A stretch of DNA of 64,000 nucleotides from a virus (Duplodnaviria; Caudoviricetes), in the IMG/VR virus record IMGVR_UViG_3300032296_002452, positions 2,006 through 66,005 of that record; one strand, given 5' to 3'. The position numbers and the translations under genes were made by a program. Below, in pieces: positions 1 through 43,272 of the stretch. The notes beneath the pieces are model-generated. The model was not told the DNA's origin and ran no database searches. It was given only the letters and a program-made list of their open reading frames with translations. The stretch's first letter is position 1. Each line of letters begins with the position of its first letter.

Positions 1-985
1 ACAAAGAAGCGTCGGTTACTTCAACAAAAAATTCACCTCCAGGTAATCCTGTGTATGTTATACTCTGCGAATATGAAATATCTATCTCTCCATTCGAAGC
101 CAAGTAATAATATGGACCTGTTCCACCTGTTATTGTTAAGGTAGCAACCCCATCACTACTAAAACACGTTGGTTGTGTTAAAACCCAAGAACCAAGTCCT
201 AAAGGCGCGCTTGTTTCAACCATTGCACCTTTTGTTAGTACACACCCGTCTGCAGACGTTATTGTACAACTATATAATCCAGGTGTTAGACCTGTTATAG
301 TTGTACCTGTTTGACCATTAGACCATTCGTAAGTAAATGGTGAGTTACCCGTAAGTCCTGTAACATATACCTTACCCGTGTGAATTTCGTTTGTTGTTGT
401 AACTCCAGTTGCCCCTGTTATAAAAACTTCTCGAGTACCGTTACACAAACCATCATTAACAACATAAAAACCAAAATCCAAAGAATTTCCTGAACTTATT
501 AGAAAACCCCCTGTTTGTCCTGTACATCCTGAATTATCATTTACAACAATATTATAAACACCCGCAGACAACGTACTGTAATAGTAATTATTTTCATATA
601 CATCCACAGAACTTATAAGATTGTCGTTGGAATCATAGAGATTGAAGGTATTAACTTGGCTATTTGTTTCTGCGGTTACAGAAACAAATCCATTATTTTC
701 ACCGCATGTGGTACCTGACACATCAGATATTGTAACGGAAACGGATGAACTTATATTAAAGTTTACCGTCTGTTGTAAGTTGGTTGGGTAGCTAGAGTCA
801 ACTATACTTAAAGCATAACTACCAGGTAATAAAGAACTTCTAGTTGATGATAATACGTCATAGTCCGTTCCTAATCCGTTTTGATATGAAAAAGTATACG
901 GAGGATTACCTGTTGTTGCTGAAATTAATACGGAACCAAGTCCGTTACAAGTACCTGTTAGTTGTATATTATATTCTAAACTCAT
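1..985 (-). CDS. Cys-containing SprB-like repeat protein (partial, runs off window start); probable tail/baseplate appendage
   Basis: Absent from the ORF track. ATG at 985 overlaps the TGA of the upstream gene (ATGA). Translation begins MSLEYNIQLTGTCNGLGSVLISATTGNPPYTF and contains GNSPFTYEWSNGQTGTTITGLTPGLYSCTITSADGC, a typical SprB-type repeat. Confidence 0.75.
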   Translation of the reverse strand, partial: MSLEYNIQLTGTCNGLGSVLISATTGNPPYTFSYQNGLGTDYDVLSSTRSSLLPGSYALSIVDSSYPTNLQQTVNFNISSSVSVTISDVSGTTCGENNGFVSVTAETNSQVNTFNLYDSNDNLISSVDVYENNYYYSTLSAGVYNIVVNDNSGCTGQTGGFLISSGNSLDFGFYVVNDGLCNGTREVFITGATGVTTTNEIHTGKVYVTGLTGNSPFTYEWSNGQTGTTITGLTPGLYSCTITSADGCVLTKGAMVETSAPLGLGSWVLTQPTCFSSDGVATLTITGGTGPYYYLASNGEIDISYSQSITYTGLPGGEFFVEVTDASL

Positions 986-3933
986 ACACAGTCAATATTG
1001 AGGTCTAAACCTACGTTTAATGTAAATACAATTTCAGACGGTAGATTACAAGTTAATGAATAAACACGTACTACACCATCAATAATTTGATAATAGTAAT
1101 TTTCATCAATAAGTGAATCTAAGGCGGTTATTAATCCACCATACCAATCATTTTCTGTTGGAACGTCACTTATACCTAACTGTTGATAGAATAAAACTTG
1201 TGCCGCGGTTACACCACTAATTTCAATATCAACGTACCAATACGCCGTTAAACTATTTGTTTCACAATCAGACAAAACATATCCATTGTCATCTAAATAT
1301 TCATTAAGAGTATCAAAAAGAATGTCAGATAAAGAACTAACAGTAGAACCCGCATCTAACCATGGGTACACACCAAACTCAGTATATTCATCTATACAAT
1401 CATATGGTAAAAATTGTCCTTTACATCCACATGGGTCGTACTCAATAGTTACTATTTCACATCCTCTTTGTCTTTTATATGCAAATTTTTGTCTCTGAAA
1501 TATAGAATTTTCATATCTAAGACCTGTATTCCATATTGTAGTTGCCGGTATCATCTGTTTAACCAACTCAACCCAATAAGTCCCCAAACCTTCTAAATAC
1601 GCAGAAACATTTTGATAAGTAAAATTGTCATTAGGAACGCCAGCAATTTCTGAGGACTCAATATATTTCCAAAAAATAGAACTCAAAGTAGGATATCCAC
1701 CTGTTTTTCCATCGGTAATCCACTGTCTATTTCTTGTATTAATCATATTTCTCCAAAAAGTTTGTGCAAATTCAAAGAAAGAGAGTCTATCAGGTTGTGG
1801 ATTAATAACGGTCCAATCAATTCCTCCAATCTGAGGGTAAGGAACAGTAAGACCAGTGCTTGGTATAGGGTAATTATAATTCCTTGACATTTTCCATACG
1901 TCATATGTAAAGGCGTAGGATGGGTTTAAAAATAAATCAACATTTTTGGCGTTTAGAACTAACCTATCGTCTTGAATCACGTAAAGAGCGTTGTATCCAG
2001 ATTCAATACTTCGTCTTATCTTAGGTGGTTGCCACGATTTTTTGTTGTCAATTACAGGTCTAAGTTTGTACCCTTCCCTCATGTAGGGGAAATTTCTATA
2101 TCTTTCGTAATATTTTTGTCCGTATGTAAACGGTTGCAGTTCTGTTTGTACACTTGGGTTATTACCGGTATAAACCGATAAGGATTGATTCACCACTGAC
2201 GGACTAATGTGGTCAGGTTGTGGTTGATACCATCCCGCACCTAATTGGAAAAAGTAGTCGTCGGTTTGTAGTGGTGCTTTTGGCCAACCATTATTGTCTA
2301 CAGGATACTCTTCTCTAGTTACATCGACTGTTTGAGTTTGTAGGTTTATATTGAAACCGGTATACACGGTTCCTAATATATTCTCGGTTACTGTGGGGTC
2401 AAATACCACATTTTGAGTAACTAAAGTCCCTCCTGATATTTGAGCGTACTGCTCATTAAAGTACGCCATATTAATTCTTGAATCCGCAAGATAAACGTAT
2501 TCGTTAAAATCTATTAAGAAGTCAGGTGCCCCTATTAATCTTAATGTAAATTCAATCGCCTTTCTAGTTCCTTTTGACCTAAACAAATAAGCCGAGTTTA
2601 ATATTATATTTCTATAAAACTGAAAATTTACTTCTGCGGGTGTTTGTTGTCTTGAGTATCCTAAATAATTTCTAGTACCGCCAGTACCATAAATGGCATC
2701 TAAAAAATTTGTCTCAGTAATAGGTGATATATTGGGCTCCCAACCTAAGGTAAGTGCCAAATTTTTAAGTAATGCTGAAGGTATGTCGTTTCCAACATTG
2801 TAATTTACCGATGTCATATGCGCCATACCGTCGATATATTTTTTAACCTCATCAAAACTTCTACCATATATTTGTAGTACTTTAGCAATTTTTTGGTCAG
2901 GAGTATCAAACTCTTTAAAAGCTTCTGTGGTAAAAAATCTTAATACTAAGTTAGTTTTTGCTAAATCAAAATTGATTCCTATATCAGATAGTGTTGCTAA
3001 ATAGTTATCAAAATCAGGTGTTCTTATATCTAAATTCCATTGTCCGTCTAAAGGCCACGTAACGGATTGTTGTTTTGTTGCGGATTGACCGTTTTCTAAT
3101 TCTACCGGAACGTTGAATACCGCAGTATATGCTGGTTGTATAAGTCTGTTAAGTAAAAACTTTTCAACCTCGTCAAAATTATCTGAAAACGTTTGTTCTG
3201 TGTAAAAAGTGTTAGGTCTTATTATTAATGGTAAAATAGAACTAGATGCGCCCGAAAAAGGATTACCTCTAACAACAAATTCGCAAACTCCAGAAAATAA
3301 TGATTGGGATGAATTAAATATTATTACAGGATATTCAGTTTCAAACAAATAAAGAGAATATTTTAGATATTCAACCGTCAAATTTCTTAAAGGTGAAAAA
3401 TCATATTCTCTACTTCTTAAGTTTATTGTTGCACCTGAAGAATAATCAATATTAAAAGGATTTTTTATTCTACTTACATTAACAATAAATGTTGTTTCAT
3501 CTTCAATTTCGTTATAAACGATATTTGATGCGGTAACTCCTGTTGTTAGGTCGTAGTTAGTAAAATCAATATCTAAAGCCGCAGGAAAATAATTGATTAT
3601 TTTTGTTATTGAAACCTCAAATCTTTTACTTAAAGAACCATAAAGACTAAAAGACGTTACCTGACTTAAATCAAAATTAGGATAAACCCTGTAATCTTTT
3701 GCCGCAGCCTTTCTAGCTTCTATTAAGTTAGTTATGTTTAGCGAATCTAAAGATATTGGATTAGAAAATGCACCAACATTAAAATTTCTATTAATTTTTT
3801 CCTGTACAGTGGTAGTAAAACTGAAATTACCTTGGGTCAAACCACCTCCGTCCACAGTTTGTAAACCAACTATGTTGTCAAATGGAGTTTGACTACCTAT
3901 CGCCGCTGTATTTGGTATAAACTTTTTAGCCAT
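982..3933 (-). CDS. Putative baseplate wedge / tail structural protein (983 aa)
   Basis: LALTLGW...YLFRSKGTRKAIEFTLRLIG resembles the P2 gpI / T4 gp7-type wedge motif; lies in the baseplate gene cluster. Confidence 0.55.
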   Translation of the reverse strand: MAKKFIPNTAAIGSQTPFDNIVGLQTVDGGGLTQGNFSFTTTVQEKINRNFNVGAFSNPISLDSLNITNLIEARKAAAKDYRVYPNFDLSQVTSFSLYGSLSKRFEVSITKIINYFPAALDIDFTNYDLTTGVTASNIVYNEIEDETTFIVNVSRIKNPFNIDYSSGATINLRSREYDFSPLRNLTVEYLKYSLYLFETEYPVIIFNSSQSLFSGVCEFVVRGNPFSGASSSILPLIIRPNTFYTEQTFSDNFDEVEKFLLNRLIQPAYTAVFNVPVELENGQSATKQQSVTWPLDGQWNLDIRTPDFDNYLATLSDIGINFDLAKTNLVLRFFTTEAFKEFDTPDQKIAKVLQIYGRSFDEVKKYIDGMAHMTSVNYNVGNDIPSALLKNLALTLGWEPNISPITETNFLDAIYGTGGTRNYLGYSRQQTPAEVNFQFYRNIILNSAYLFRSKGTRKAIEFTLRLIGAPDFLIDFNEYVYLADSRINMAYFNEQYAQISGGTLVTQNVVFDPTVTENILGTVYTGFNINLQTQTVDVTREEYPVDNNGWPKAPLQTDDYFFQLGAGWYQPQPDHISPSVVNQSLSVYTGNNPSVQTELQPFTYGQKYYERYRNFPYMREGYKLRPVIDNKKSWQPPKIRRSIESGYNALYVIQDDRLVLNAKNVDLFLNPSYAFTYDVWKMSRNYNYPIPSTGLTVPYPQIGGIDWTVINPQPDRLSFFEFAQTFWRNMINTRNRQWITDGKTGGYPTLSSIFWKYIESSEIAGVPNDNFTYQNVSAYLEGLGTYWVELVKQMIPATTIWNTGLRYENSIFQRQKFAYKRQRGCEIVTIEYDPCGCKGQFLPYDCIDEYTEFGVYPWLDAGSTVSSLSDILFDTLNEYLDDNGYVLSDCETNSLTAYWYVDIEISGVTAAQVLFYQQLGISDVPTENDWYGGLITALDSLIDENYYYQIIDGVVRVYSLTCNLPSEIVFTLNVGLDLNIDCV

Positions 3934-4841: not shown

Positions 4842-4845
4842 ATTT

Positions 4846-4853: not shown

Positions 4854-4873
4854 TTATTTTTTACTTTTTATCT

Positions 4874-6361
4874 TTATTCTACGTCAAAATATCCGTATCC
4901 ATAACGGTTTAATTGTCCAAAATTATTTACCTCACCTAATCTGTGAATTTTTTCGTAAGGTGCTAACTTACCTCTTTCTACGTAAATGTTTGATTGAACT
5001 TCGGGTTGTGACGATAAACCCAACAAAAATTCTTCTTTCACAATCGCTTGTGCCATAGATGTTTCTTCACAACATAAATTTGTATTTTCCGTTATACTAT
5101 AAAAATCGTTCGGGTTATTTTCATTGTCTAACAAGACATCGTTTTTGTAATAAAAAATAACAACATCATCACTTGCGGTCCTTCTAACACAAAAATCTTT
5201 ATAATAATTCCCAGGTACTTTGTATGGTTTGCTCAAATATGTATTCGCAAAACAATTACTATATCCCACAAATACAACACCATCATATTCAGGATTTAAT
5301 ACGTTTCCAGATGCACTAAGTAAATCTCTTATATCTATCCTAACATCAAAAAAATTACAAGCCCTACAGCCAATATCTCCGTTTGGAAAAGTCACATACT
5401 CCTCACTAACTGTTAATATAGGTACTTGTATGTCGTCCGCTAATGTATCTTCGGTTATACCAGAACTTGGAAGTACATATATAGTCTGTTTATTTTGATA
5501 ATCAATATAGTTCACATCACCTATTGTGTAAGCGGTATAAAATAACTTCAAATCAGAATCGTATGCATTTATTGAACTTATGCTACCGTACAACTGTCTA
5601 TTTCTAAATACGGGTCCCAATCTGTATTGTGGTATTGAATAATTTCTAAGTTCGGACAATCTTGACTTTGTGTTTCCTGTAACAGGAAAAGGCCAAGGAT
5701 TTACATACGGTTTTGATATTTGATATCTTTTTTGGTTTGTTGTGTCACCTGTGAATAGATATTTGTAACTAATTGGTGATGATGACCAAGAACCACCTAT
5801 CGGAGTAAAATAGGCATCCCCTAATGGGTCTAATATAATAGGAAATTGTGTTGCGGGTAATGTAATTTGTTTTTTTACTGTTATAACACCCCAAGGTCCA
5901 TTTTGATTTACGGTTATTGTATATTTTTTTGGTGTTGATGGATAGGTATGTTTTATTACACCGTCCAACGGAAAATTTTCTATAGGCGAACCATCACCAA
6001 AATCAACTTTGTATTGTGACAATAGATTAGTGGGAATAAACTCGTCCGATGTGTTTTTTATGTTGATTTCATAAGAGCCCGCCGAATCTACACCTTGTGG
6101 AAAAATAACAAAATTATTCACCACATCTATTTGTAATACGTTAAAATCTAAAACAGAGTAGTAACCCAAATCAATTATATTCTGTTTTATAAAAACAGGT
6201 ATTGTTAATCCCGTAAACAAAGAAGTACCAAGCGTACCTCCCGTTAACATTTGCGTCATGGCAGAATAAACACCTACTTCAGTTCCGTCATAATTAACGT
6301 CTTGAACTATTGTTTTTAGTACCTCGGGCGATATTCTTATTTTATAAAAATCAGTGTTCAT
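4874..6361 (-). CDS. Structural protein with PKD-like domain and Cys-rich insertion (495 aa)
   Basis: YKVDFGDGSPIE...KHTY...YTITV is a PKD-type signature; structural context. Confidence 0.55.
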   Translation of the reverse strand: MNTDFYKIRISPEVLKTIVQDVNYDGTEVGVYSAMTQMLTGGTLGTSLFTGLTIPVFIKQNIIDLGYYSVLDFNVLQIDVVNNFVIFPQGVDSAGSYEINIKNTSDEFIPTNLLSQYKVDFGDGSPIENFPLDGVIKHTYPSTPKKYTITVNQNGPWGVITVKKQITLPATQFPIILDPLGDAYFTPIGGSWSSSPISYKYLFTGDTTNQKRYQISKPYVNPWPFPVTGNTKSRLSELRNYSIPQYRLGPVFRNRQLYGSISSINAYDSDLKLFYTAYTIGDVNYIDYQNKQTIYVLPSSGITEDTLADDIQVPILTVSEEYVTFPNGDIGCRACNFFDVRIDIRDLLSASGNVLNPEYDGVVFVGYSNCFANTYLSKPYKVPGNYYKDFCVRRTASDDVVIFYYKNDVLLDNENNPNDFYSITENTNLCCEETSMAQAIVKEEFLLGLSSQPEVQSNIYVERGKLAPYEKIHRLGEVNNFGQLNRYGYGYFDVE

Positions 6362-7161
6362 TATGGATTGATAAACTCATACCAATTTATGGGATTTCCG
6401 TCTTGTCCTACTCTTAGACCAGATGGGTGTTTTTGAACTATATAATATTTTGGTCCATTTGTTATTGGGTCGTCTTCAAACGTAACCTTATAATAAAAAA
6501 ACTCTTCGGGGTTAAAGGTTGTTGGCGAACTTGCGTTTTGTGGGGTATTAATCATTCGTACAAATTCACCCGTTTCACCATCAAAAAATTTCGCACTCAT
6601 ATAAAAAGTTTTTATATCTAAAAAATTTTTCTTTTTTAACCAATAAATAAAAAACCCCTCTTTGTCACCAACAAAATCTAATCTAAAGTCGGGTTTTCTT
6701 ATGTTTACTGTGTTAACACCTAATTGAGATTGTTCGAACGCCCCTTGACTTACAGGTAAAATTATTGTTATATAATTTTTTTGTGATTGTGTATTTGGGG
6801 TGTCGTATAAATCTAACTTCCAAAAAGAACTAACAAATTGATTAGTAAAATAATAAATTTGTTTTGTGTCAAACTTTGGTAGATAAGAACAAACATAGGT
6901 ATTTGTATTTGCACTTTTGAAAAAAAAGTTGTAATTTATCGCGGTACCGTCTTGGGTAAGTCCCACAGATGGATATGGTTTGTGTGTAATTCTATTTGTT
7001 TCAAAATCTTCTTGATTTAATAGAGATTCAACAACATCTCTTTCGTAGGTTTCATAACCTTCGTCTACACCGGTAAGGTCCCAAACCTGTTCAACAGGTA
7101 TTGTGAACTCTAAATCCGTGATATCCGGTGTAAGTCCTATTCTATATTTATTCACATTCAT
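6361..7161 (-). CDS. Hypothetical structural protein (266 aa)
   Basis: Long ORF translationally coupled to its neighbours. Confidence 0.5.
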   Translation of the reverse strand: MNVNKYRIGLTPDITDLEFTIPVEQVWDLTGVDEGYETYERDVVESLLNQEDFETNRITHKPYPSVGLTQDGTAINYNFFFKSANTNTYVCSYLPKFDTKQIYYFTNQFVSSFWKLDLYDTPNTQSQKNYITIILPVSQGAFEQSQLGVNTVNIRKPDFRLDFVGDKEGFFIYWLKKKNFLDIKTFYMSAKFFDGETGEFVRMINTPQNASSPTTFNPEEFFYYKVTFEDDPITNGPKYYIVQKHPSGLRVGQDGNPINWYEFINP

Positions 7162-8872
7162 CTATTAGTGGTCTTGGTATAAAGGTTGATTGTGTCAATC
7201 CTAATTTAGCCCCTTCAGGTATTAATCTGAATTGAACGTTTGTGTATGGATAGTGTGTTTGATTTACGAAAGGGTAATCAACACCATTACCATCTACATC
7301 TATATATCCATAAGGATATAAATCTCGCCATCTAAACATATTTAAATTAGGTGAAAAATAAGAATAGGTTGGTATATCGATTATTGATTGTTTTTCACCC
7401 TCTTCAATATATCCTGAGTATGATTTAATTCTCATTGGGTGGTGAACTTGGTAATAGTATCCGACAGGATTTGTATTACCAACACCTATTTGAAAGTTCT
7501 TTTGATTAAATACGAATTTGTGGTAATATGGTGAAATTACTCTACCTAGTTGTTCATAGTCGTTATATTCATACCAATCCCCGTAAATAGTATCACCTGT
7601 GTTTAGTGTTTCGTTATAGTAAAAATTAAAAGTCTTTGTTAAGTCTACTTTAGAATATGACGTTTTAGTTATGGATGTCTCGTTAGATAGCGGTTGGTTA
7701 AAATCCCACCAAGGTGAAATTATTGGTTCATTCATGTTGAATTCCCAACCCCTTTTTAATCCATATTTTTCATTCATAAACCATCCGGCATATCCTTTGT
7801 AAACAAACGTTAAATAAAAAAAATCAATTGGTTTTTGGTTCTCATCCAAGATACTCGCAATGTTTAGGTCTTTTTGATTTGTGATTGAGTATGCTTGTGA
7901 ATTAGTTAACCTTGATACGCTAGAAATATTATTTGGAGTTAAAGAAGAAAATTCGAATTTTGAGGGGTTATTAAAAGCGTTTATGTCAAAAGCCGCGGTT
8001 TCAAGTTGCAAGTCAGCAGTTTTACTAGCAACTTTATTAATTCTTATATAATATCTAGATGTTGTATCGGCGGTATTTGTTATGTCTATAGTTCTTTTGA
8101 AGATATAAACATACCCTGATTTGAAAGTGGTTCCTGTGTAACCGGGGTTATATAGGTTAAAGATATATTCATCACTACCATACGTATCATTACCTAAAAG
8201 GTTTACTTCAAAAAAACTAGTCCCGTTGTATGAAAATGGAAACTTTACGTATTCACCCACAGATAAACCATGTTTTACGGGACATGTAAATTGTAGGTAG
8301 TTAGCACCATTTATAGTAACACCAGATAGAAGTGCGGGTATACCTTCAGATGATAAAAAACTAGCTAATAGGTTTCCGTTATCATTTTGATACCATCTCA
8401 TATTAAAATTTGTATCGGCACTGAAAGGGTATGTCAAATAATAATCCCAATTATATGTTGTTGCGGACTCTGCTCTATAACCTATATGAGTATTGTAACT
8501 ATCTAATCTTATTAAATCAAACTCATATGTTTGTGGTATCCCGTACCACGTTACTGTTGTTCCTGCAATTTTTTGAGCTAAAGATTTTTCACCGTCCAAT
8601 ATATACAAGTTGTATGAAAAGGGATTGTAGTCAGTTGTACCTGAGTAATTATTTTCGAACAAAAAATCTACTTTGAATGTTGGTCTAAATATTGTGGACT
8701 TTTGTCTTTCTTGGTCAAACAAATCGGATAGGTTTAAATTAAACGACCTATCTGTTTCTACCAACAAACTTGTATTTTGTTCGAGCGTTGTTGGAACCTG
8801 ATAAGATACTTCGGGAGCGCCTTTGTATCTATTATTAGATTTTATTACAATATTGTCATTTACGTTATCCAT
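7148..8872 (-). CDS. Hypothetical structural protein (574 aa)
   Basis: Long aromatic/beta-rich ORF in the baseplate cluster, coupled to its neighbours. Confidence 0.5.
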   Translation of the reverse strand: MDNVNDNIVIKSNNRYKGAPEVSYQVPTTLEQNTSLLVETDRSFNLNLSDLFDQERQKSTIFRPTFKVDFLFENNYSGTTDYNPFSYNLYILDGEKSLAQKIAGTTVTWYGIPQTYEFDLIRLDSYNTHIGYRAESATTYNWDYYLTYPFSADTNFNMRWYQNDNGNLLASFLSSEGIPALLSGVTINGANYLQFTCPVKHGLSVGEYVKFPFSYNGTSFFEVNLLGNDTYGSDEYIFNLYNPGYTGTTFKSGYVYIFKRTIDITNTADTTSRYYIRINKVASKTADLQLETAAFDINAFNNPSKFEFSSLTPNNISSVSRLTNSQAYSITNQKDLNIASILDENQKPIDFFYLTFVYKGYAGWFMNEKYGLKRGWEFNMNEPIISPWWDFNQPLSNETSITKTSYSKVDLTKTFNFYYNETLNTGDTIYGDWYEYNDYEQLGRVISPYYHKFVFNQKNFQIGVGNTNPVGYYYQVHHPMRIKSYSGYIEEGEKQSIIDIPTYSYFSPNLNMFRWRDLYPYGYIDVDGNGVDYPFVNQTHYPYTNVQFRLIPEGAKLGLTQSTFIPRPLIDECE

Positions 8873-15641: not shown

Positions 15642-15646
15642 ATAAA

Positions 15647-30504: not shown

Positions 30505-30817
30505 AATAATAGAAGTGATTGTCTAATGCGTTTTTATAGTCTTGAAGTGAACCAATCAGAGGATACGGTATCGTAAGTATTGCACCATCGTATATGTTCC
30601 ATTCTAACCCACCAAACTGTGGATTACCCTGTAGAATAAGCCACCCAAAATATGGTGAATTATAGTATTCTTGACTTATTTTATCTAGTCTTGAAATACC
30701 TTCTCTGTAAATGTATCTTTGGTCAGTTGTCTTAGATGGCAAAGTTACATAAGGCACAACTGTCTGTCGACCATTAATCAAGAAATTCAAATACCTATTG
30801 TAATATTGTAACGCCAT
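30494..30817 (-). CDS. LysM-like baseplate wedge protein (T4 gp53 / P2 gpX-like)
   Basis: RLDKISQEYYNSPYFGWLILQGNP...GAILTIP. Confidence 0.8.
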   Translation of the reverse strand: MALQYYNRYLNFLINGRQTVVPYVTLPSKTTDQRYIYREGISRLDKISQEYYNSPYFGWLILQGNPQFGGLEWNIYDGAILTIPYPLIGSLQDYKNALDNHFYYYGR

Positions 30818-33800: not shown

Positions 33801-35760
33801 CTCTTTCACATACGGGTAAATCTTGAACTCTGTAATCGGGTCTTGCTCCTGTTCTCCAAGCCAAATTCTCAATAGAAAACATATATTTTCTAGCATAACC
33901 ACCAAGACCATTATTATTGTTTGGTACTATGTTTGTAGAATCCGTTCCTTTATATGGTGCGATGTTTAAGTTATATGTGTTATCCAAAACCGAGTCGGCG
34001 AATTTTCTTCCGTAATTTGTTATACCTTCTCTTTTTTGTAAGTCGGTAAAAGTATAATATGGTGTGTCTTTGGTAAAAATCCTACAGTATTCTTGTCCTA
34101 CTTCAACACCATTTTGTGATTTATAAGAAATTACTTTTGAACCTTTAGTGATTTCTTTGTACCCATCATTAAATACTTTCGCCGTTTGGTCTATTGCATT
34201 TCCTACGTGAGCAAATCTTGCCTTTCCTTCCGGTATTGAGTCAATTAATTTTTGTGTATTAAATAGTATTGAGTTTGGTGTAAACTCGTATCTTGTTGAT
34301 TCTGTGGCTTGTAGTGTATTACTAATCTCATTAAATTGTGGGTCGGCACCAAAAACTTTACCGCCAGGTCCAACGTAATTTCCTGCGTCTTTTTTGTATT
34401 TTGGTGATACCCAAGTAAATCCACCTTGTATACTTCCGTCGTCTTCGTATGCCCTACCTGCTAAACCAAATTTAAAATCCTTATCTTCACCTTCAAATAA
34501 TTTAGCCAATAAGTCATTACCGTATACGGGCGCATTCACTTCTTTTCCCACATCATTTAAAGGTACTTGACCTGGTGGTGATGTAAGTGTTGATGGGTCT
34601 CTGTCTGTACCACCAACATAAAAATCACCAGAACCTGCGGGTGAGTCAAATATTGATGTAATTGCACCAACTATTCGACTTACCAAATTACCTCCCTTTG
34701 TAAGTTGGTAGTTTGGTCTATATCGGTTCATATCTATGTTAGCCTGTAATTGAGATTTTTGACCTGAACCAGTATATTCCAAAAATAACTCAGATGGTGT
34801 TCTACCTCTGTCTGTTTTACGTCCTAATAATTTACCTACGAACCCACTTCTATATGCAGCGATTTGTGAGAAAGCACTACCATAGTTTTTTTGTTCCATG
34901 TCTTCGTCAAAATAATCACCCGGTATTGGTGATACAGGAATTGTTACACCAGCAAATCTTTGCAGGATATCCATACCATTACCTAATATTCCGCCGCTAA
35001 CCGTAATTTTCCAATCTCTAGCCACTAACGGTCTTTTTCCTGCAAGTATTTGAGCCAAATTAAATGGGTCTTTTAGTCCGTTCAATATGTTTAATCTACC
35101 TATTGTTTGATTTCTAACATTTTGGTCAACTCTATATTGTAAATTGTCTTTTAGATTTTTAGCGGATAGTTTCATCGGGTCTGAATCTTCAGATAACAAT
35201 CCGTCGTCACCCACAGGGTCACCTTGTAAAAGAATATTATATGGGGTATAAATAGAAGGAACAAAACTTGGTGGTGTCCAATAGTTTTGGAATGTAGGAA
35301 TTACCGTTCTGTCTATTGAGTTGTCGTAAACAAACGTATATGATGTTTGAGCACTTTGAGTTATATCTACAACAGGAAGGGGAGCAAACTTATTTCTTGT
35401 TGCGTTTGCTGCTCTAAAAGTAAAATTATATCTAACTATAGCATTTAAAAATGGTGGTGTTGGTCCGTAAGCCCCTTGATTTGGTTGTGTTGGTTCAGTA
35501 TCGGTAATAAAACTAATGTCTTTATCATAACCACCGTTAGGTCCGTACTCATTTCTTTTATACGCATCAGTAAGATAAGGTTCATTAACTAATGGGTCAG
35601 GTGTATTAACAACTGAAAAGTCTCTTAAAAATAAATCACCCGCCGCCCTATCATTTTTTCCCGAATATATACCGGGTACGTTGTAGGGTGGAAGGTTTCT
35701 ACCCAGTAAATTTTGTCTGAGTATAAAGGTAGAAAAATATGATAATGGACTTTCTGCCAT
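30817..35760 (-). CDS. Tail tube initiator / baseplate protein with an inserted OmpA-like domain (1647 aa)
   Basis: FPPYDLKFDES...FLGRPEPVYTYTNTKRTGTLSW and APPVLVLRIGD tube-initiator motifs flank IRLQGSAS...YNDKLSQRRIDSV...LGE...CRVVRI. Confidence 0.65.
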   Translation of the reverse strand: MAESPLSYFSTFILRQNLLGRNLPPYNVPGIYSGKNDRAAGDLFLRDFSVVNTPDPLVNEPYLTDAYKRNEYGPNGGYDKDISFITDTEPTQPNQGAYGPTPPFLNAIVRYNFTFRAANATRNKFAPLPVVDITQSAQTSYTFVYDNSIDRTVIPTFQNYWTPPSFVPSIYTPYNILLQGDPVGDDGLLSEDSDPMKLSAKNLKDNLQYRVDQNVRNQTIGRLNILNGLKDPFNLAQILAGKRPLVARDWKITVSGGILGNGMDILQRFAGVTIPVSPIPGDYFDEDMEQKNYGSAFSQIAAYRSGFVGKLLGRKTDRGRTPSELFLEYTGSGQKSQLQANIDMNRYRPNYQLTKGGNLVSRIVGAITSIFDSPAGSGDFYVGGTDRDPSTLTSPPGQVPLNDVGKEVNAPVYGNDLLAKLFEGEDKDFKFGLAGRAYEDDGSIQGGFTWVSPKYKKDAGNYVGPGGKVFGADPQFNEISNTLQATESTRYEFTPNSILFNTQKLIDSIPEGKARFAHVGNAIDQTAKVFNDGYKEITKGSKVISYKSQNGVEVGQEYCRIFTKDTPYYTFTDLQKREGITNYGRKFADSVLDNTYNLNIAPYKGTDSTNIVPNNNNGLGGYARKYMFSIENLAWRTGARPDYRVQDLPVCERGPNGGRVMWFPPYDLKFDESVTPSFKDHDFLGRPEPVYTYTNTKRTGTLSWKMVVDHPSVVNILVNKVLASETDRAKVDSVINSFYAGCRKYDLYELARQYNTIPTSELYTYQQILNNPNSTQEDVSAISNATNNDSQTVQQPTEVNLNKYQNLGFYFENDIPDPNTTQVFSTQPFENLVGPYLGLKQFYVDQNAKNGGTVQEQIGNFFDDIISDNYNQSKELLKDIINVVKNKNERVTIRLQGSASAPQSKTYNDKLSQRRIDSVLQYFSGFTFQSGEETLSLSNLIDEGKVLIQPLALGENAEGVQPRSYNKNTTLDSYNCTDGDLATTQDLTVKWYGLNAMACRVVRISSITSEPLSSTPPPDITANQNDALAAQGRTPQPQKPQPQIDLLQQVKQGISKKILRYLLSECDYFEVLKETNPFVFDSIKDKIKYFSPVFHSMTPEGLNGRLTFLQQCTRPGDTIPTIGANGEKIYNDAINTAFGAPPVLVLRIGDFYNTKIIPTSLSLKYENLDLNPEGIGVQPMIVDVTLGFNFIGGSGLKNPVERLQNALSFNFYANTEIYDERATPTVDTSALDKALVQAIIDQTPVVGVNSVNNVQENDFGKTIGDITLRTQTETAETGTTSYTVFMDKLNTQTKEYYSAVDTFMNEIVNEYNYGVYQATVSEMDYTTGKLLAFNTPIDSPLYGKPSAYQKNIDEVFSALTLDIETDSIAFIQSGVAGKGANQASIRTFKKNYTTFLNELKSGFLSKLTERIQTITTQQQSLGYLIDCANLIASNTDAYIMTDGNPKIFNISGTTIQTGTTTSLTADSYTTLISDLTLIGSGNTQFITALKNTGPNFLYNVSYKAGGDFEPIQTSDSNDFNSTTKKREYMILCQTILKNYENFRTKMLKDINDVSFERNFDLFYGTQTKAAFQREQDEAIKTLTLFKNGNPNFFGEKYKTFPSGVKRNFTFSTLPAASATQKTNVKNLYTTQNVDNDKKVYNLKKKFN

Positions 35761-37602: not shown

Positions 37603-37624
37603 TTTTTACTTATAAATAGGTATC

Positions 37625-38513: not shown

Positions 38514-38543
38514 AAAAAAACACAGGGGTTAGTCCCTGTGTTT
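38514..38543 (-). terminator. Intrinsic terminator after the tail tube gene
   Basis: AAACACAGGG-ACTAAC-CCCTGTGTTT with a T run that abuts the next ATG. Confidence 0.7.
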
Positions 38544-38593
38544 AAATATACTTAGGTTGATTATTAAATCAACAAAATATGAAAAATATAGTA

Positions 38594-39082: not shown

Positions 39083-39204
39083 AGTATATTTTCTTTAATA
39101 TTTTTATTTTTTATTTTATGTGTATCTATAAATACTCCGAATTAATATTTTTGTATTTACTTTTGTTTTTTAACTTTTATAGTTCCACTAGACCAGTCCA
39201 GAAC

Positions 39205-40032
39205 TTAATATTTTCTTTTAATTCCTCCTTTAGTTAAATAAGTTTGTACTATATTATCAGGGTCATCTTCAAATTTACTTTTCATTAATTCAACATTTTT
39301 TAAATCATCATCTGAAAAACCAATAGAAGGTATAAAATTATTTGTAACTAAATTTTTGATTTTAGCTCTTTGGTTTAATTCTTCTGATAATTGTTTTACA
39401 TAAGTAACAAACTCCCTCATAGCATCAACTTTAGCCTCTTCAGGATTGGACTCAACTCCGGCACCATAACTAACGGGATAAAATTTACACATATCCAAAT
39501 AGTTAATTATTAATTCACGGTCAGAAAGTTTGTCCATGTTCATGAAATTCCTGAATTTCTTTAAATTTTTTATTAGTTGTTTTTTATCAATTCCACCAAA
39601 ATCCATTACAATCATATTGTAAACCGCATCTTTTATTGTTTGTGGTGAATGACCTCTAGCGGTTATTATTGCAAAAATAGAACCATTATTAATTGCCTCA
39701 ACAAAATCGTTCCATACAGGTCCTTTTTCTGCGTCAAAAACATCTACCTTAAATTGTTCGTCTCCGTCTGTTCTAAAATTTCTAAAAGCTGTTGTGTAAT
39801 CTAACCCTATAATTGTTCTACCATTATATTTAAAAGGTTCTTTGCCAATTTTACTTCTGTATTCAGCAAAATCTTCTGTACTCATACCAACCTCTTCCCC
39901 GTTTTCGTCTAAAACCATGATTTTGGTTGGCATAGACAGTATGTTGTCATCCCAATCAAAGGCATAATATTTTAAACTTGGGGTCCCAAATTCTGTAAAC
40001 CCTTCAACAATTCGTTTATATCTATAAAACAT
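39205..40032 (-). CDS. HAD-superfamily phosphatase-like protein
   Basis: Motif I YAFDWDDNI, motif II ITARGH, conserved Lys (EEAK), motif IV GFSDDDLKN. Confidence 0.7.
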   Translation of the reverse strand: MFYRYKRIVEGFTEFGTPSLKYYAFDWDDNILSMPTKIMVLDENGEEVGMSTEDFAEYRSKIGKEPFKYNGRTIIGLDYTTAFRNFRTDGDEQFKVDVFDAEKGPVWNDFVEAINNGSIFAIITARGHSPQTIKDAVYNMIVMDFGGIDKKQLIKNLKKFRNFMNMDKLSDRELIINYLDMCKFYPVSYGAGVESNPEEAKVDAMREFVTYVKQLSEELNQRAKIKNLVTNNFIPSIGFSDDDLKNVELMKSKFEDDPDNIVQTYLTKGGIKRKY

Positions 40033-40049
40033 TAATTTTAGAAATGGCT

Positions 40050-40081
40050 AAAAAATGAGACCGGCACTTAACCGGTCTCAT
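40050..40081 (-). terminator. Intrinsic terminator after the tail sheath gene
   Basis: Perfect 10-bp stem ATGAGACCGG/CCGGTCTCAT with a 7-nt loop, then a T run. Confidence 0.8.
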
Positions 40082-40089
40082 CGTTTTTA

Positions 40090-43000
40090 TTAGATGTCTT
40101 CGAATGAAGCACCTGTTGGTGTAATCAAGAATTCTATATCAATAAATTCTAATGATTTAGTTGGTTTCAGATAGATTTTACCAACCAATTGGTTTCTGTC
40201 CAAATCAGCAGGGTCTGAAGAAACTGTCACACGGAAATCGTACAAACCTCTGTCTCTTCTAATCGAATCCAAAATTGGGTTTACTGAATCCAAAAAGTCC
40301 TGTCTAACTTTTTCGTCGTTTTGTTCAAACAACAATCTAGCTGCGACTGCTGATATTAATTTACGTGTTTGAAGTAATAGTCTTCTAACGTTAATTCTAT
40401 CAAGAGCGGATTCTGCAACTTGTAAGGTTTTATTACCCCAAATTACAGTTCCTACATCAGCAAAAGTTGCAATTGGGTTGATTCTACCTTCATACAAAGT
40501 ATCTCTTTGTGTTTGTGTTAGTTTTAATCTTGCCTTAATTGAGTTTACCAAACCTCTTGTATAACCTGCCGATGCAAACCATGGGAATGCAATATTGTCA
40601 GTTAACGCCAAGTTTCTTGTTACTTCACCTGTTGCGGGAATATAAATTTGAGTGTTATTTACTGTATCCCTAACTAAAATCCAAGGATAATAAGTTGCGG
40701 TATAGTTTGAATCAATACCTGTTGTATTCAAATTGTCAACAGCTTCTGTTGGTAATATAATATCATCCACCGTAACTACAGGTAAATAAACATTAACATC
40801 AGGGGTTGTACAAACATATAAAGAATCTGCTCTATCCCTTTCAACCATTTCAATAGCGTTTTCTACTAAATTACCGTTGTTTACGTAATCAATACCTGGT
40901 GTAACTAATACATTTATGTTTACCGCTTCAGGATTGTTAAATGTTTGAATACCCAATAAGTAAGCGTAGTAGTCGGTGTTAGACCAGTTTGTTACGTCTT
41001 GGTCTATTGTAATAATTTTAAACATACCTTCATTTGTCGCACTTGGGTATCTGTTTAAAGCATCACAAGCCCCGTTCGCCCACCCCGAACCACCAATAAT
41101 AAACCTGTCAGTATTTGTTCTTGTTTCTCTGTAAATGTCCCAACCGTCAAAACCTCCTTGAACCAAGAATGTGAATTTACGTGATTGGATTGTGTAATAA
41201 GGGTTATTTGGATTAGTTGGGTCTGTTTGGAACGACGCATCTCCTACATCAAACATAGAAGTACCTGAAGTAGAATAAATTGCCGGAATAGTAACAACAG
41301 TCGCTCCCGAATCCATATGAAATCCTTTTGACAAATAGTTCCAAGGTAATGAGTCAACCTGACAAATGTTAGAAGGATTTAATTTACCTTTATAGGTATA
41401 ATAGTCAGGGTCCCAACCATAAGCATAAGCCGTTGAGAAACCTAAATAAGTTTGTCTGATTTTGTCGCCAGAACTATATACTGCGTTGTCACCACCTACC
41501 GCATTTCCAAAAGGAGGATTAGAGATAATTTCATTTGGGAAATTATATCTGGTTTTATAGATAGGAAATGGACTTATTGCACCTGTATACTTCCTAAAGT
41601 TGTAACCTTCAAAACCACATGGTAATGATGTTATTGGTGCGTTTTCGTTAAGTTCCAACATGATAAACTTAGACAATAAAGCGTATTCTCCGTTTGAACT
41701 ACCTATTTTTTTACCTACATAACTATTAGACGCTGGGTCCATAGTACAGTTAGTAAATCTCTCTAAGAAAACAGGATTAGAATCTGTATCGGTATAACTA
41801 CGAACACCAATATCAAATGTGCCATTTGTAAACGAAATGTTTAATATTGAAATTTTTATTTCTACGTTAGCCGAATCACCATCAGATATTGTATGTACTT
41901 TAAATAATTTAGTTACTTTAGTACCTTCTAATTGTGATACAACCCAAGGAGATTCAGCACTTTGATATCTATCTAAATACCAACCTATCGATGAAGAAGA
42001 ATTACTTCTCGCACTTGGTAGATTAACAAAACTACAATTTATACCTCTAATGTATCCTTGATTGTACGAATTATTTAAGAAGGTTGGGAACGTTTCTTCA
42101 ACAAACATTGGGACATCTCTTCTAGGTTTACCGAAGTTTGTAACACCAAAAACCCTGTCTATGTAATTAGCCGCGGATAGAGATAAAGACGTTTCAAAAC
42201 TAAAAGTAGTACTTTCAATAGTACCACCCGTAATCGCAAAAGTAGCAAAAGGATTTTTAGATATATCGCCATAGGTTGGTACGGAAGTACAATCTACTGT
42301 GGCACCTGTACAAAAATATTCAGGACCATAGTTAGAACCAACATAAGTTGCAATACCTCTTGACCTTAAAGTTGCTACAACAACATCATCATAATCACAA
42401 TAAGAAACACCTGAATAAGTATATAATGTGCCCGATACTGAACCCGAGAAACTACCACTGCCTAAATCAGTTGCTCCTGTAACGTTAATGTAAAACGAAT
42501 ATCCCGAATATGTACAATCACCTTCATTGTCAAACAAAGCGTAGTACCATTCATCATTTTGGTCATTTTCTAAATCGTTAAGTGATAAATCCACATCGTT
42601 TACACCTAAATCATTTATTTCGGTTGTATAAACAAGTGACGTATAACCCGTATAGTCATTGGTTGCAATACTACCAAAATAATCAATCGAAGTTGACGCC
42701 GCAGAAAACATACCGTCTATTGCTAAATCATATATATAATTTTGAATGTCACCACTTATTGTTGAAACACTTCCATTAAACTGTGTATATTCACCAAAAT
42801 GATTTTGAATTGGGGTAGGTAATGCGGTTAAGAAATCAATTGAAGACGAGCTTCCTGTTGTACCTGAAAAATTAAAACTAAAAGGTGTTGTTAAGTTTGA
42901 GTCTATTCCAATAGTTGTTGGGTCAACATTGGCGATTGTTGTTAAAGACCAAGACGGACCAGCGTCGTATCCTGATAATCCAAGCACTCTTGTTACAAAA

Positions 43001-43272
43001 AGTTGATTAGATTGTTGTAAATACGATTTAGCTATGTATGCTGCCTCGTATTTTGGTATTTGAGTGTTAACAAATTTTTCGGGTTGGGTTCCTCCAAAAT
43101 ACGACTGAAAATCATCATAGTTTGTGATGAAAATAGGTTCGAAAGCCGGACCTTTAATTGTTTCTCCAACAATACCGAGAGTTGTTACACCCACACTTTG
43201 AGCTACGAAGCTTAAATCTCTTTCTGACGTATACACACCAGGTGATACGAATACTTTATTTGAACTTGCCAT
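40090..43272 (-). CDS. Tail sheath protein (T4 gp18-like, 1060 aa with insertions)
   Basis: VSPGVYTSERD, TYYPWI, PWFASAGYTRG, INPI, WGNKTLQ, RINVRRLL, PTKSLEFI. Confidence 0.95.
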   Translation of the reverse strand: MASSNKVFVSPGVYTSERDLSFVAQSVGVTTLGIVGETIKGPAFEPIFITNYDDFQSYFGGTQPEKFVNTQIPKYEAAYIAKSYLQQSNQLFVTRVLGLSGYDAGPSWSLTTIANVDPTTIGIDSNLTTPFSFNFSGTTGSSSSIDFLTALPTPIQNHFGEYTQFNGSVSTISGDIQNYIYDLAIDGMFSAASTSIDYFGSIATNDYTGYTSLVYTTEINDLGVNDVDLSLNDLENDQNDEWYYALFDNEGDCTYSGYSFYINVTGATDLGSGSFSGSVSGTLYTYSGVSYCDYDDVVVATLRSRGIATYVGSNYGPEYFCTGATVDCTSVPTYGDISKNPFATFAITGGTIESTTFSFETSLSLSAANYIDRVFGVTNFGKPRRDVPMFVEETFPTFLNNSYNQGYIRGINCSFVNLPSARSNSSSSIGWYLDRYQSAESPWVVSQLEGTKVTKLFKVHTISDGDSANVEIKISILNISFTNGTFDIGVRSYTDTDSNPVFLERFTNCTMDPASNSYVGKKIGSSNGEYALLSKFIMLELNENAPITSLPCGFEGYNFRKYTGAISPFPIYKTRYNFPNEIISNPPFGNAVGGDNAVYSSGDKIRQTYLGFSTAYAYGWDPDYYTYKGKLNPSNICQVDSLPWNYLSKGFHMDSGATVVTIPAIYSTSGTSMFDVGDASFQTDPTNPNNPYYTIQSRKFTFLVQGGFDGWDIYRETRTNTDRFIIGGSGWANGACDALNRYPSATNEGMFKIITIDQDVTNWSNTDYYAYLLGIQTFNNPEAVNINVLVTPGIDYVNNGNLVENAIEMVERDRADSLYVCTTPDVNVYLPVVTVDDIILPTEAVDNLNTTGIDSNYTATYYPWILVRDTVNNTQIYIPATGEVTRNLALTDNIAFPWFASAGYTRGLVNSIKARLKLTQTQRDTLYEGRINPIATFADVGTVIWGNKTLQVAESALDRINVRRLLLQTRKLISAVAARLLFEQNDEKVRQDFLDSVNPILDSIRRDRGLYDFRVTVSSDPADLDRNQLVGKIYLKPTKSLEFIDIEFLITPTGASFEDI

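Follow-up and report, generated by a model that had tools for sequence, protein, structure and literature searches.

Phage-encoded glycosylation of virions has been documented in very few systems. The window studied here, the whole stretch of 64,000 nucleotides at positions 2,006 to 66,005 of IMG/VR record IMGVR_UViG_3300032296_002452, raises the question of whether a further system of this kind can be recognized from a short peptide motif. A sequence-only reading of the window had noticed that the tetrapeptide [S/T]-[G/A]-x-[T/S] recurs across unrelated structural proteins, and had proposed that it is a convergently acquired acceptor sequon for the glycosyltransferases (GTs) encoded in the same window, marking exposed surfaces of the particle. 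Here, we ask whether the excess is real, where in the virion it resides, and which of several roles, acceptor sequon included, it most likely serves.

Motif excess in the structural proteins

Of the 48 window ORFs of at least 100 aa, 44 were used after dropping four antisense or nested ones. The structural set comprised 16 ORFs (11,239 aa) and the non-structural set 24 ORFs (8,079 aa); the SprB-like, the two lectin-like and the collagen-like ORFs were excluded from both. All tetrapeptides previously listed in the sheath and in the 983-, 574-, 1619- and 495-aa proteins (Table 1) are present, and the proposed enrichment held up against composition-preserving shuffles. Together the structural ORFs contain 72 [ST][GA]x[ST] sites, where global shuffling predicts 31.4, 20-residue local shuffling 34.4 and 10-residue local shuffling 35.9, and 72 sites were reached in 0 of 300 shuffles. 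Its narrow core, [ST]-G-x-T, occurs 39 times against 11.3 expected, a count reached in 0 of 1000 shuffles. After 10-residue local shuffling the remaining excess is 2.0-fold for the broad and 3.4-fold for the narrow motif. Composition and low complexity are thus ruled out by the global, 20-residue and 10-residue shuffles alike. The 24 non-structural ORFs (replication and sugar enzymes) contain 6 broad sites against 8.9 expected, in agreement with the rarity claimed for these enzymes.

Eight permuted orders of the same residue classes gave observed/expected ratios (O/E) of 0.7-1.6. Single-position swaps in the structural ORFs were not enriched either, whether at position 4 ([ST]G.S, O/E 0.78; [ST]G.[VI], 0.93), position 1 ([VI]G.T, 0.81) or position 2 ([ST]N.T, 1.07; [ST]D.T, 0.49). 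The motif cannot be put down to a glycine turn or to beta propensity, because N and D are barred at position 2 and V and I at positions 1 and 4; the glycine turn is further ruled out by the acceptance of A at position 2 and by the lack of special conservation of G. Post-hoc motif choice is ruled out by unbiased pattern ranking, in which T-G-x-T came top among about 48,000 patterns for the structural ORFs and, when all 39 window ORFs were scanned, headed the ab.c patterns (p 3e-11). Codons at the sites vary, with Ser drawn from both the TCN and AGY families, which excludes a DNA-level motif. As had been proposed, the tetrapeptide is distinct from established sequons: neither N-x-S/T (108 against 133 expected) nor the Bacteroidota motif D-(S/T)-(A/I/L/V/M/T) (35 against 38.2) is enriched in the structural ORFs.

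Table 1. Window features discussed in the text, with coordinates counted from the first letter of the window.
Feature	Position	Strand	Remarks
SprB-repeat protein, open at window edge	2..985	-	PF13573, 32.2 bits (cut-off 28)
983-aa structural protein	982..3933	-	7 motif sites, 2.3 expected
495-aa baseplate or fibre protein	4874..6361	-	8 motif sites, strongest excess
574-aa baseplate or fibre protein	7148..8872	-	7 motif sites
1619-aa distal baseplate protein	8872..13731	-	Downstream of gp6-like wedge
gp6-like baseplate wedge (internal control without site)	13800..15641	-	0 motif sites, 1.5 expected
1647-aa protein	30817..35760	-	Between replication and tail modules; weak OmpA-like stretch
Tail sheath, 1060 aa	40090..43272	-	Pfam sheath domains and phrog_23, residues 767-1057
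Sheath insertion region, aa 121-700	41173..42912	-	Carries 13 of 14 sheath sites
GT cluster: HtrL_YibB-like, GT25, DUF1647-like, GT10, DUF6165, GT60-like	53667..60813	-	Pfam
HtrL_YibB-like protein, 557 aa	53667..55340	-	Pfam E 2.3e-13; travels with GT60
GT60-like transferase, 421 aa	59548..60813	-	PF11397, E 9.4e-66
Pro/Thr mucin-like linker, aa 117-156 of lectin-like ORF 60906-61982	61515..61634	-	Directly upstream of GT60
Second lectin-like (Laminin_G_3) protein	61985..62989	-	Pfam E 3.7e-16
Collagen-like fibre protein, open at window edge	62994..63998	-	Pfam Collagen E 1.2e-27; tail-fibre PHROGs

Distribution among and within virion proteins

Composition shuffles gave 5.3 expected sites for the sheath (14 observed, including some beyond those first listed, such as TGSS, SAAS, SARS, SAES and TGAS), 5.8 for the 1619-aa protein (16 observed), 4.9 for the 1647-aa protein (11 observed) and 1.3 for the 574-aa protein; the 495-aa protein was expected to carry 1.1 (z 7). 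The narrow motif is also in excess in the corresponding families, with O/E of 3.3 for the 1619-aa protein (78 homologs), 6.2 for the 574-aa protein and 6.8 for the 495-aa protein. Neither Pfam nor PHROG profiles matched the 983-aa protein. In the gp6-like wedge family [ST]G.T is absent from 80 mutually related homologs, against 37 expected. Motif sites are missing from enzymes, those of the GT cluster included, and from inner virion proteins. The sequence-only reading had also placed them in the hub and tube initiator, which was not confirmed (0 sites in the 248-aa hub, the 162-aa tube and the 275-aa ORF). The TGTT and TGST that it saw in the lectin-like ORFs do exist, but the broad motif is not enriched there (4 against 4.0 and 4 against 3.5 expected). 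The collagen-repeat count, 64 sites against 21 expected, follows trivially from G-x-y periodicity. The 13 sites of the SprB-repeat ORF are explained by its repeat consensus, with sites returning at equivalent positions from one repeat to the next (e.g. TGGTgpY).

Within the sheath and the major capsid protein the motif clusters in insertion domains that relatives either lack or carry in varying form. Sheath residues 121-700 hold 13 sites against 5.0 expected from local shuffling, a number matched in 1 of 1000 shuffles, while the flanking core segments hold 0 and 1. Residues from about 124 to 352 are largely gapped in the alignment with the Mel-JY01 sheath, and in a PDB sequence search solved sheaths covered only residues 8-112 and 712-1059 of the window protein. 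The motif-rich insertion domains of sheath and capsid probably face outward.

Family alignments revealed both conservation and turnover. Among homologs of the 574-aa protein (41-45% identity) site columns are kept, column 135 in 29 of 29 sequences and column 251 in 29 of 30; at column 76 position 1 exchanges with V or I, and the G and final T are constant. The 495-aa family conserves columns 238 (23 of 23), 289 (22 of 22) and 313 (21 of 22), with S/T and G/A swaps. Across relatives some sites are conserved and others independently gained, and density stays high, which agrees with the proposed convergent acquisition. The two S/T positions are conserved above background (0.59 and 0.61 against 0.44), whereas G/A at position 2 is conserved no better than other G/A (0.50 against 0.51). 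Position -1 is more often hydrophobic (0.51 against 0.35 background) and aromatic (0.26 against 0.12), while position -2 is depleted of charged residues. Selection on the motif therefore acts at the protein level, with the hydroxyl positions conserved and position 3 free.

Search for a shared fold

Recurrence in unrelated proteins was upheld. The motif-bearing structural proteins had no mutual BLAST matches, and hhalign of the 495-aa against the 574-aa family gave a probability of 0.4% and no shared domain. A relaxed Pfam search of the enriched proteins other than the SprB-repeat ORF returned only sub-threshold hits (PKD_4, E 0.31; Ig_RSC4, E 0.039). As far as these BLAST, hhalign and Pfam searches reach, a paralogous shared domain is rejected. 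The AF2 model of the 574-aa protein was usable in part, with a core at residues 141-290 of pLDDT 78-94; that of the 495-aa protein was too poor for mapping (mean pLDDT 45). Five sites lie in the confident part of the 574-aa model, at a strand end, in mid-strand, in a loop, in a one-turn helix and in a hairpin loop. Foldseek against the PDB found nothing at E<=0.001, VIA-align retrieved a common small beta-barrel (Z 7.6), and the ESM Atlas yielded neither a model nor named neighbors.

Comparison with other phages

Homologs from relatives G001, G002 and G004 again show the motif excess. None was found in T4, XacN1, RAS14 and Mel-JY01, beta-rich tail proteins included, nor in G003; T4 has 57 broad sites against 53.5 expected and 18 narrow sites against 14.3, and XacN1 has 67 [ST]-G-x-T against 66.2 across 239 ORFs. 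A general property of beta strands or tail fibres is ruled out by the lack of excess in T4, XacN1, RAS14 and Mel-JY01. Flavobacterium phage immuto has no GT60; T-G-x-T takes second place among its patterns (53 against 25.3). Nine of its sites come from Ig-like-looking internal repeats, and this weaker excess is only partly explained. The excess in the window is thus a signal at the protein level and not a matter of composition, paralogy or general beta-strand propensity, and [ST]-[G>A]-x-T, which mostly follows a hydrophobic or an aromatic residue, constitutes a genuine, clade-specific signature. It is found in distal baseplate and fibre proteins and, within sheath and major capsid protein, in insertion domains that evolve fast.

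The phage is probably a large moraphage-like myovirus with a Bacteroidota host. Moraphages are described in the accessible part of PMC12619734 as large aquatic phages of Bacteroidota, up to about 300 kb, with several core GT orthogroups. The likeness rests on shared traits, namely aquatic source, size, GTs, glutamine synthetase and DnaJ; that part of PMC12619734 does not mention the motif. Relative G001 carries glutamine synthetase, DnaJ and T9SS sorting domains, as well as an 866-aa ORF whose repeats carry the same tetrapeptide.

The glycosyltransferase cluster and its Pro/Thr linkers

The GT60-like enzyme matches PF11397 ("GlcNAc") at 223.1 bits (cut-off 21). We confirmed 365 relatives in IMG/VR, of which 80 (73-86% identity) were kept; homologs in XacN1 and RAS14 are 45-49% identical, and a PDB sequence search matched no solved structure. 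Full-length homologs of the HtrL-like protein occur in XacN1, Xoo-sp13, CM1 and RAS14, and the gene is also present in G001-G004. Of the cluster GTs, only the GT60-like and HtrL-like ones are common to the motif-rich genomes (window, G001 and G002), and both genes are also found in XacN1, RAS14 and G003, all without motif excess. The proposed link between motif and GT cluster is not supported by this comparison: the cluster GTs do not track the excess, and GT60 and the HtrL-like protein are rejected as the cognate enzyme on the grounds of their presence in motif-poor phages. A phrog_7162-type GT and a Glyco_tranf_2_5 protein occur in G001, G002 and G004 and are absent from all five motif-poor genomes, a co-occurrence confounded by the motif-rich genomes being one clade.

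A more conventional candidate acceptor adjoins the cluster. Lectin-like ORF 60906-61982 contains a (T-P-T-x)n linker at residues 117-156 and 15 Pro/Thr-linker patterns, and shares its N-terminal domain (57% identity across some 120 N-terminal residues) with the second lectin-like protein. An ORF with such linkers lies beside GT60 in 64 of 80 GT60-anchored loci and in 0 of 80 wedge-anchored loci, and Pro/Thr linkers accompany GT60 in five of six GT60-bearing genomes, G003 being the exception. For the GT60/HtrL module, the most probable acceptors are the (T-P-T-x)n linkers found in its neighbors, the lectin-like and collagen-like fibre proteins. The sugar toolkit of the clade is very large. DNA hypermodification was rejected as a role of the cluster, as no hydroxymethylase or TET/JBP-type companion enzyme occurs among 119 G001 ORFs of >=230 aa, out of 145 of that size mapped to a locus; what these ORFs do include is a 2OG oxygenase of the prolyl-hydroxylase type that is fused to GT2.

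Discussion

It is reasonable to ask at the outset whether a motif picked by eye could be an artefact, whether of composition and low complexity, of repeats or of choosing it after the fact, all the more so as the collagen-like and SprB-repeat ORFs inflate raw counts. This is scarcely credible, since the repeat ORFs stand outside the structural set, local shuffles leave the excess in place, T-G-x-T tops unbiased scans and the excess recurs in the homologs of three relatives. The most likely reading, to which we subscribe only tentatively, is that the motif is a hydroxyl-dependent structural signature. It would form a side-chain-capped strand end or edge and would recur in the beta-rich decoration domains of the clade, as in the neighboring SprB-type repeats; it would then not be an acceptor of the GT60/HtrL module. 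The presence of the tetrapeptide inside a known repeat fold in the SprB-repeat ORF argues for a structural role, as do the hydrophobic or aromatic residues at position -1, the V/I exchange at position 1 with G and T fixed, the T-G-x-T excess of immuto, a phage that lacks GT60, and the occurrence of GT60 and HtrL-like genes in phages without motif excess. The sites in the confident 574-aa model, however, do not share a single structural context. Also counting against this reading are the conservation of the S/T positions but not of G/A, the barring of N and D at position 2 and of V and I at positions 1 and 4, the lack of excess in the beta-rich tail proteins of T4, XacN1, RAS14 and Mel-JY01, and the failure of BLAST, hhalign and relaxed Pfam to detect a common domain.

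It is possible, if rather doubtful, that the motif is an O-glycosylation acceptor for a clade-specific phage GT other than GT60/HtrL, coating capsid, sheath and baseplate, with the glycan probably on Thr at position 4. The rules of the motif look like those by which an enzyme recognizes its substrate: position 1 must bear a hydroxyl, position 2 must be small, position 3 is free, and position 4 takes Thr to the exclusion of Ser, Val and Ile. Conservation above background of the hydroxyl positions and not of G, a density that persists in the variable insertion domains while individual sites come and go, and absence from enzymes and inner virion proteins point the same way. So do the large sugar toolkit, the lack of DNA-glycosylation companions in the G001 ORFs scanned, the presence of the phrog_7162-type GT and Glyco_tranf_2_5 in G001, G002 and G004 but in none of the five motif-poor genomes, and the virion glycoproteins reported for XacN1 in the accessible part of PMC5852040. 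Against it, that GT co-occurrence is confounded by a single clade, none of the window's own cluster GTs tracks the motif, hydrophobic flanks and mid-strand sites are not usually seen where folded cytoplasmic proteins serve as acceptors, and the Pro/Thr linker offers a conventional candidate acceptor right beside the cluster. Somewhat less likely still is the composite picture of a Thr-directed sequon, [ST]-[G/A]-x-T, read by a putative clade-specific GT (with the phrog_7162-type GT and Glyco_tranf_2_5 as candidates) beside a separate, linker-decorating GT60/HtrL system. Location in surface domains, hydroxyl conservation and clade specificity would fit any sequence-specific surface role, such as contact with host or environmental glycans, binding of an assembly or decoration partner, or a different modification. 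We consider such another function distinctly improbable: no observation favors it in particular, and the analysis turned up neither a partner nor a kinase or another modifying enzyme, the sole "kinase" PHROG match in G001 being pyruvate phosphate dikinase by Pfam.

Comparison with known systems helps to place both the motif and the module. GT60 enzymes of protists are polypeptide or hydroxyproline alpha-GlcNAc transferases whose targets are Thr-rich mucin-like repeats or Skp1. By its PF11397 match and the Thr/Pro-rich repeats encoded beside its gene, the window enzyme may likewise be a cytoplasmic, protein-directed transferase. O-glycosylation by Bacteroidota hosts acts outside the cytoplasm; its D-(S/T)-(A/I/L/V/M/T) motif and N-x-S/T are, like the tetrapeptide, short and hydroxyl-containing, and the probable host is a Bacteroidota, but unlike it they are not enriched in the virion proteins. 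SprB-type Ig-like repeats of Bacteroidota adhesins have the same tetrapeptide as a fixed repeat element, both in ORF 2-985 and in the 866-aa ORF of G001. He_PIG-type Ig-like repeats of these adhesins also contain it. The other enriched window proteins, however, have no significant match to SprB or Ig-like families.

Among phages, XacN1 has at least two glycoproteins in its virions, and the authors attribute them to the phage's own GTs, one of them a GT60 homolog (PMC5852040, accessible part). This GT, ORF334, is 47-49% identical to the window enzyme, and XacN1 shares the HtrL-like partner, the layout of PolB followed by a GT cluster and the (T-P-T-x)n linker proteins; it differs in having no [ST]-G-x-T excess. 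In mycobacteriophages, phage-encoded GTs O-glycosylate virions (Freeman et al., 2023, as cited in PMC12619734). Going by the accessible part of PMC12619734, the likeness extends to phage-encoded GTs, modified capsid and tail proteins and proposed surface shielding. The mycobacteriophage glycans described there are demonstrated and sit on C-terminal tails of capsid and tail-tube subunits, whereas the candidate sites in the window are internal tetrapeptides in insertion domains.

The analysis yields a motif that is statistically solid, extends across the clade and lies on probably exposed domains of capsid, sheath and baseplate. It also yields a separate and more conventional module, made up of GT60-like and HtrL-like enzymes and fibre proteins with Pro/Thr linkers, which cultured jumbo phages such as XacN1 have as well. 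Our literature search found no acceptor motif defined for any phage. If the sequon reading were true, this phage would possess two protein-glycosylation systems and the first sequon for a bacteriophage. Confirmation of either the motif or the module would reveal how a glycan coat is made by large phages in the environment, and such a coat, if confirmed, would bear on the recognition of hosts, the evasion of defences and the stability of the particle.

Gene content of the window and its relatives

The 64 kb window was drawn from a 66 kb viral contig (GC 30-39%), and ORF calling, Pfam and PHROG resolved three modules in it: a myovirus tail, a replication module and a glycosyltransferase (GT) cluster (see table). 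No close cultured phage was found: sheath and wedge are 23-32% identical to their best matches, in Microcystis phage Mel-JY01 and Flavobacterium phage immuto. Nothing in the window was recognised as a tape-measure protein. Relatives in IMG/VR numbered more than 596 for the wedge and 365 for GT60. One of them, G001 (294,914 bp, estimated 98% complete), has a wedge 75% identical to that of the window; its further gene products include glutamine synthetase, DnaJ, a sigma-70 factor, PPK2 and pyruvate phosphate dikinase. Two of its proteins carry sorting domains for type IX secretion, which point to a Bacteroidota host.

Coordinates and content of features in the window and in IMG/VR relatives G001, G002 and G004
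Feature	Sequence	Position	Content or observation
SprB-repeat protein	window	2-985	tetrapeptide at a fixed place of each repeat
Structural ORFs	window	982-43272	N-x-[ST] depleted: 108 vs 133 expected, 297 of 300 shuffles at or above observed
Tail module (T4-like but very distant)	window		gp25-like and gp6-like wedge, hub, tube, 1060-aa sheath, five large unannotated proteins
Replication module	window		class II RNR, DnaB, exonuclease, UvsX, gp32, SNF2 helicase, PolB
Giant ORF, 2133 aa	window	24103-30504	between replication and tail modules; no family assignment
Giant ORF, 1647 aa	window	30817-35760	between replication and tail modules; no family assignment; weak OmpA-like stretch
514-aa ORF	window	47441-48985 (+)	complete Fe/Mn superoxide dismutase (residues 40-229) and ~285 residues without family match
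GT cluster	window	53,667-60,813	HtrL_YibB-like, GT25, DUF1647-like, GT10, DUF6165, PF11397/GT60-like enzyme
HtrL_YibB-like gene	window	53667-55340	conserved pair with GT60-like gene
GT60-like gene	window	59548-60813 (to 61982 with the lectin-like ORF upstream)	conserved pair with HtrL_YibB-like gene
Beyond GT cluster	window		two lectin-like ORFs, then collagen-like ORF
Sorting-domain proteins	G001	L235:14616-16502; L236:7321-9069	C-terminal CHU_C, Por_Secre_tail
Oxygenase-GT2 fusion, 620 aa	G001	L240:12690-14549	prolyl-hydroxylase-type 2OG-Fe(II) oxygenase (PF13640, E 2e-18) fused to GT2 domain
GT60-like copies	G002	55729-56985; 64223-65473	68% and 72% identical to that of G001
Unannotated ~495-aa ORF by head genes	G001	101421-102908	7 motif sites vs 0.8 expected
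Unannotated ~495-aa ORF by head genes	G002	91864-93366	9 vs 0.5
Unannotated ~495-aa ORF by head genes	G004	75668-77146	4 vs 0.5

Enrichment and specificity of the motif

Every tetrapeptide listed in the sequence-only reading, which had described a recurrent [ST][GA].[ST] (broad) motif in virion proteins, was found in the window. The 16 structural ORFs (11,239 aa) hold 72 sites against 31.4 in global, 34.4 in 20-residue local and 35.9 in 10-residue local shuffles, a count reached by none of 300 shuffles, while the 24 non-structural ORFs hold 6 against 8.9 expected; both sets omit the SprB-like, lectin-like and collagen-like ORFs. The proposed structural enrichment was thus borne out. The same residue classes in eight permuted orders gave observed/expected ratios (O/E) of 0.7-1.6. 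Because the motif had originally been picked by eye, ~48,000 exact three-residue patterns were ranked. The top pattern was T-G-x-T (22 vs 5.05, p 2e-8), with S-G-x-T in fourth place; when all 39 ORFs of the window were counted, the two took ranks one (34 vs 8.4) and two (23 vs 7.5).

The signal is a three-way correlation. Pairwise O/E in the window was 0.98 for TG alone, 1.46 for G.T and 1.27 for T..T. Enrichment before G.T was confined to T (3.1-fold) and S (2.6-fold), and after [ST]G. it was by far greatest for T (3.7-fold), K being next (1.2-fold) and S outside the top eight. Neither the 39 [ST]G.T sites (11.3 expected) nor the 18 [ST]A.T sites (7.7 expected) were reached in 1000 local shuffles. 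There was no enrichment of [ST]G.S (O/E 0.78), [ST]G.[VI] (0.93), [VI]G.T (0.81), [ST]N.T (1.07) or [ST]D.T (0.49), and reversed T.G[ST] was weakly enriched at most (1.53). Hydrophobic residues fill position -1 at 51% of sites (background 35%) and aromatic ones at 26% (12%); at -2, charged residues are underrepresented. The motif is confirmed and can be narrowed to [ST]-[G>A]-x-T; it is carried by variable domains of the virion proteins in one clade.

A motif at the DNA level was ruled out, since site codons vary and Ser is drawn from both codon families.

Location and structural context

Sites are carried by the sheath and by the proteins of 495, 574, 1619, 983 and 1647 aa; none occur in wedge, gp25, hub or tube. 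Occurrence in the hub and tube initiator, also claimed earlier, did not hold, with zero sites each in the ORFs identified as hub, tube and their 275-aa neighbour. Sheath residues 121-700 contain 13 of its 14 sites (5.0 expected; 13 reached by 1 of 1000 shuffles). This sheath can be aligned to solved sheaths at residues 8-112 and 712-1059 only, and that of Mel-JY01 is largely gapped opposite residues ~124-352. In the motif-rich relatives G001, G002 and G004, where 2.3-2.6 broad sites are expected in the major capsid protein, 8, 7 and 7 are found; with one exception they lie in an insertion (~113-375) that is hypervariable and is flanked by core segments with almost no variation. In sheath and capsid the sites thus cluster in variable insertions, which by analogy with T4 gp18 and gp23 would face outward; the surface location suggested earlier is probable.

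The unannotated ORF near the head genes of these three relatives, among the strongest excesses in each, may be a head decoration protein.

The 574-aa protein model is confident at residues 141-290 and moderately so at 330-450. The five sites within these parts are predicted at a strand end, mid-strand, in a loop, in a one-turn helix and in a hairpin loop, so that no single structural element recurs among them. The 495-aa model (mean pLDDT 45) was too poor to use. Fold searches returned nothing past a common small beta-barrel, relaxed Pfam gave Ig-like hints, all sub-threshold, and the Atlas yielded no lead. Sites of the SprB-repeat ORF are explained by its repeats.

Conservation and clade specificity

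Recurrence of the motif is independent of homology, as had been proposed: BLAST found no similarity among the structural proteins, and hhalign no relation between the 495- and 574-aa families (probability 0.4%). In 80 related loci, homolog families keep the excess ([ST]G.T O/E 6.8, 6.2, 3.8 and 3.3, from counts that kinship makes non-independent), and wedge, gp25 and RNR homologs have none. Several sites stay in place at 41-47% identity, with S and T, or G and A, replacing each other and the third residue varying freely; position-stable sites occur in 23/23, 22/22 and 21/22 sequences of the 495-aa family and in 29/29 and 29/30 of the 574-aa family. Among sheaths, that of the window has 14 sites, that of G001 20 and that of G002 16. 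Of 36 alignment columns with a site, these sites fill 33, six of them in all three sheaths; the remaining columns hold only Mel-JY01 sites. Among homologs no more than 55-60% identical, class conservation of the motif S/T (0.59 and 0.61) exceeds that of other S/T (0.44; Mann-Whitney p 0.015 and 0.010), with no gain for motif G/A (0.50 vs 0.51). In these alignments, selection acts on the hydroxyls.

The excess is not generic. It is absent from 31 T4 structural proteins (57 vs 53.5 broad; 18 vs 14.3 for [ST]G.T), from 239 ORFs of phage XacN1 (372 of its 385 kb; 67 vs 66.2), and from RAS14 (40 vs 50.2) and Mel-JY01 (33 vs 25.8). In immuto the excess is smaller and diffuse (80 vs 47.3). In this phage (L199-L207) T-G-x-T is the second-ranked ab.c pattern overall (53 vs 25.3), though it is without GT60-like and HtrL-like genes; nine of these sites come from one 546-aa internal-repeat protein with a weak He_PIG match, and the remainder are diffuse.

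Discussion

What had been observed by eye is confirmed, and its interpretation is partly supported. The central claim, that the motif is an acceptor for the window's GT cluster, is not supported. The GT60-like and HtrL-like genes are the only cluster genes common to the window, G001 and G002, and they also occur in XacN1, Xoo-sp13, CM1, RAS14 and the relative G003; the three of these scanned (XacN1, RAS14 and G003) have no motif excess. Two GTs, one phrog_7162-type and one Glyco_tranf_2_5, occur in G001, G002 and G004 and are missing from the five motif-poor genomes. As this co-occurrence lies within one clade, a sequon is possible but gains no support from it.

That the excess is an artefact is extremely improbable given the shuffles and the ranking. 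Our tentative preference, at somewhat less than even chances, is for a hydroxyl-dependent structural signature, though the five modelled sites share no element. A sequon for a clade-specific GT would also depend on hydroxyls and suit variable insertions; with its candidate enzymes confined to one clade, we consider it somewhat less likely. Some other function of the virion surface, with which the same insertions would agree, is less probable still.

GT60 goes with Pro/Thr linkers instead of the motif. The GT60/HtrL pair is conserved in otherwise distant jumbo phages (XacN1 (L164), Xoo-sp13, CM1, RAS14 and G001-G004), in most of which long (T-P-T-x)n mucin-like linker proteins accompany it, often directly upstream of GT60. 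P/T patterns total 533 in G001, 494 in G002, 690 in XacN1, 454 in RAS14 and 115 in G004 (65% complete), against 49 each in Mel-JY01 and immuto and 12 in the T4 structural set; the exception is G003, with the pair but 37 patterns and no long linkers. In the window, the lectin-like ORF that immediately precedes GT60 on its upstream side has its linker at residues 117-156. Of 80 loci anchored on GT60, 64 have an ORF with 8 or more patterns no further than 10 kb from this gene; of 80 loci anchored on the wedge, none has such an ORF. Our literature search found no paper describing the motif or this association in phages.

G001 encodes GT60, GT61, GT25, GT11, GT10, several GT2 and GT1 enzymes, sugar-nucleotide enzymes and three FkbM methyltransferases, and no hydroxymethylase or TET-type enzyme was found among 119 ORFs scanned; from this gene content, the cluster's target is probably protein, not DNA. 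G002 lacks homologs of the GT61, GT25, GT11 and GT10 of G001 yet has two GT60-like copies, which suggests varying glycan-extending enzymes around a retained GT60/HtrL core. The oxygenase-GT2 fusion of G001, which also encodes collagen-like fibres, resembles the modification of collagen or the Skp1 type, in which hydroxylation precedes glycosylation.

One of the two GTs of XacN1 is a homolog of the window's GT60-like enzyme. Virions of XacN1 are reported to contain at least two glycoproteins, which the authors ascribe to these two GTs (PMC5852040); this is an experimental precedent in a phage carrying a GT60 homolog.
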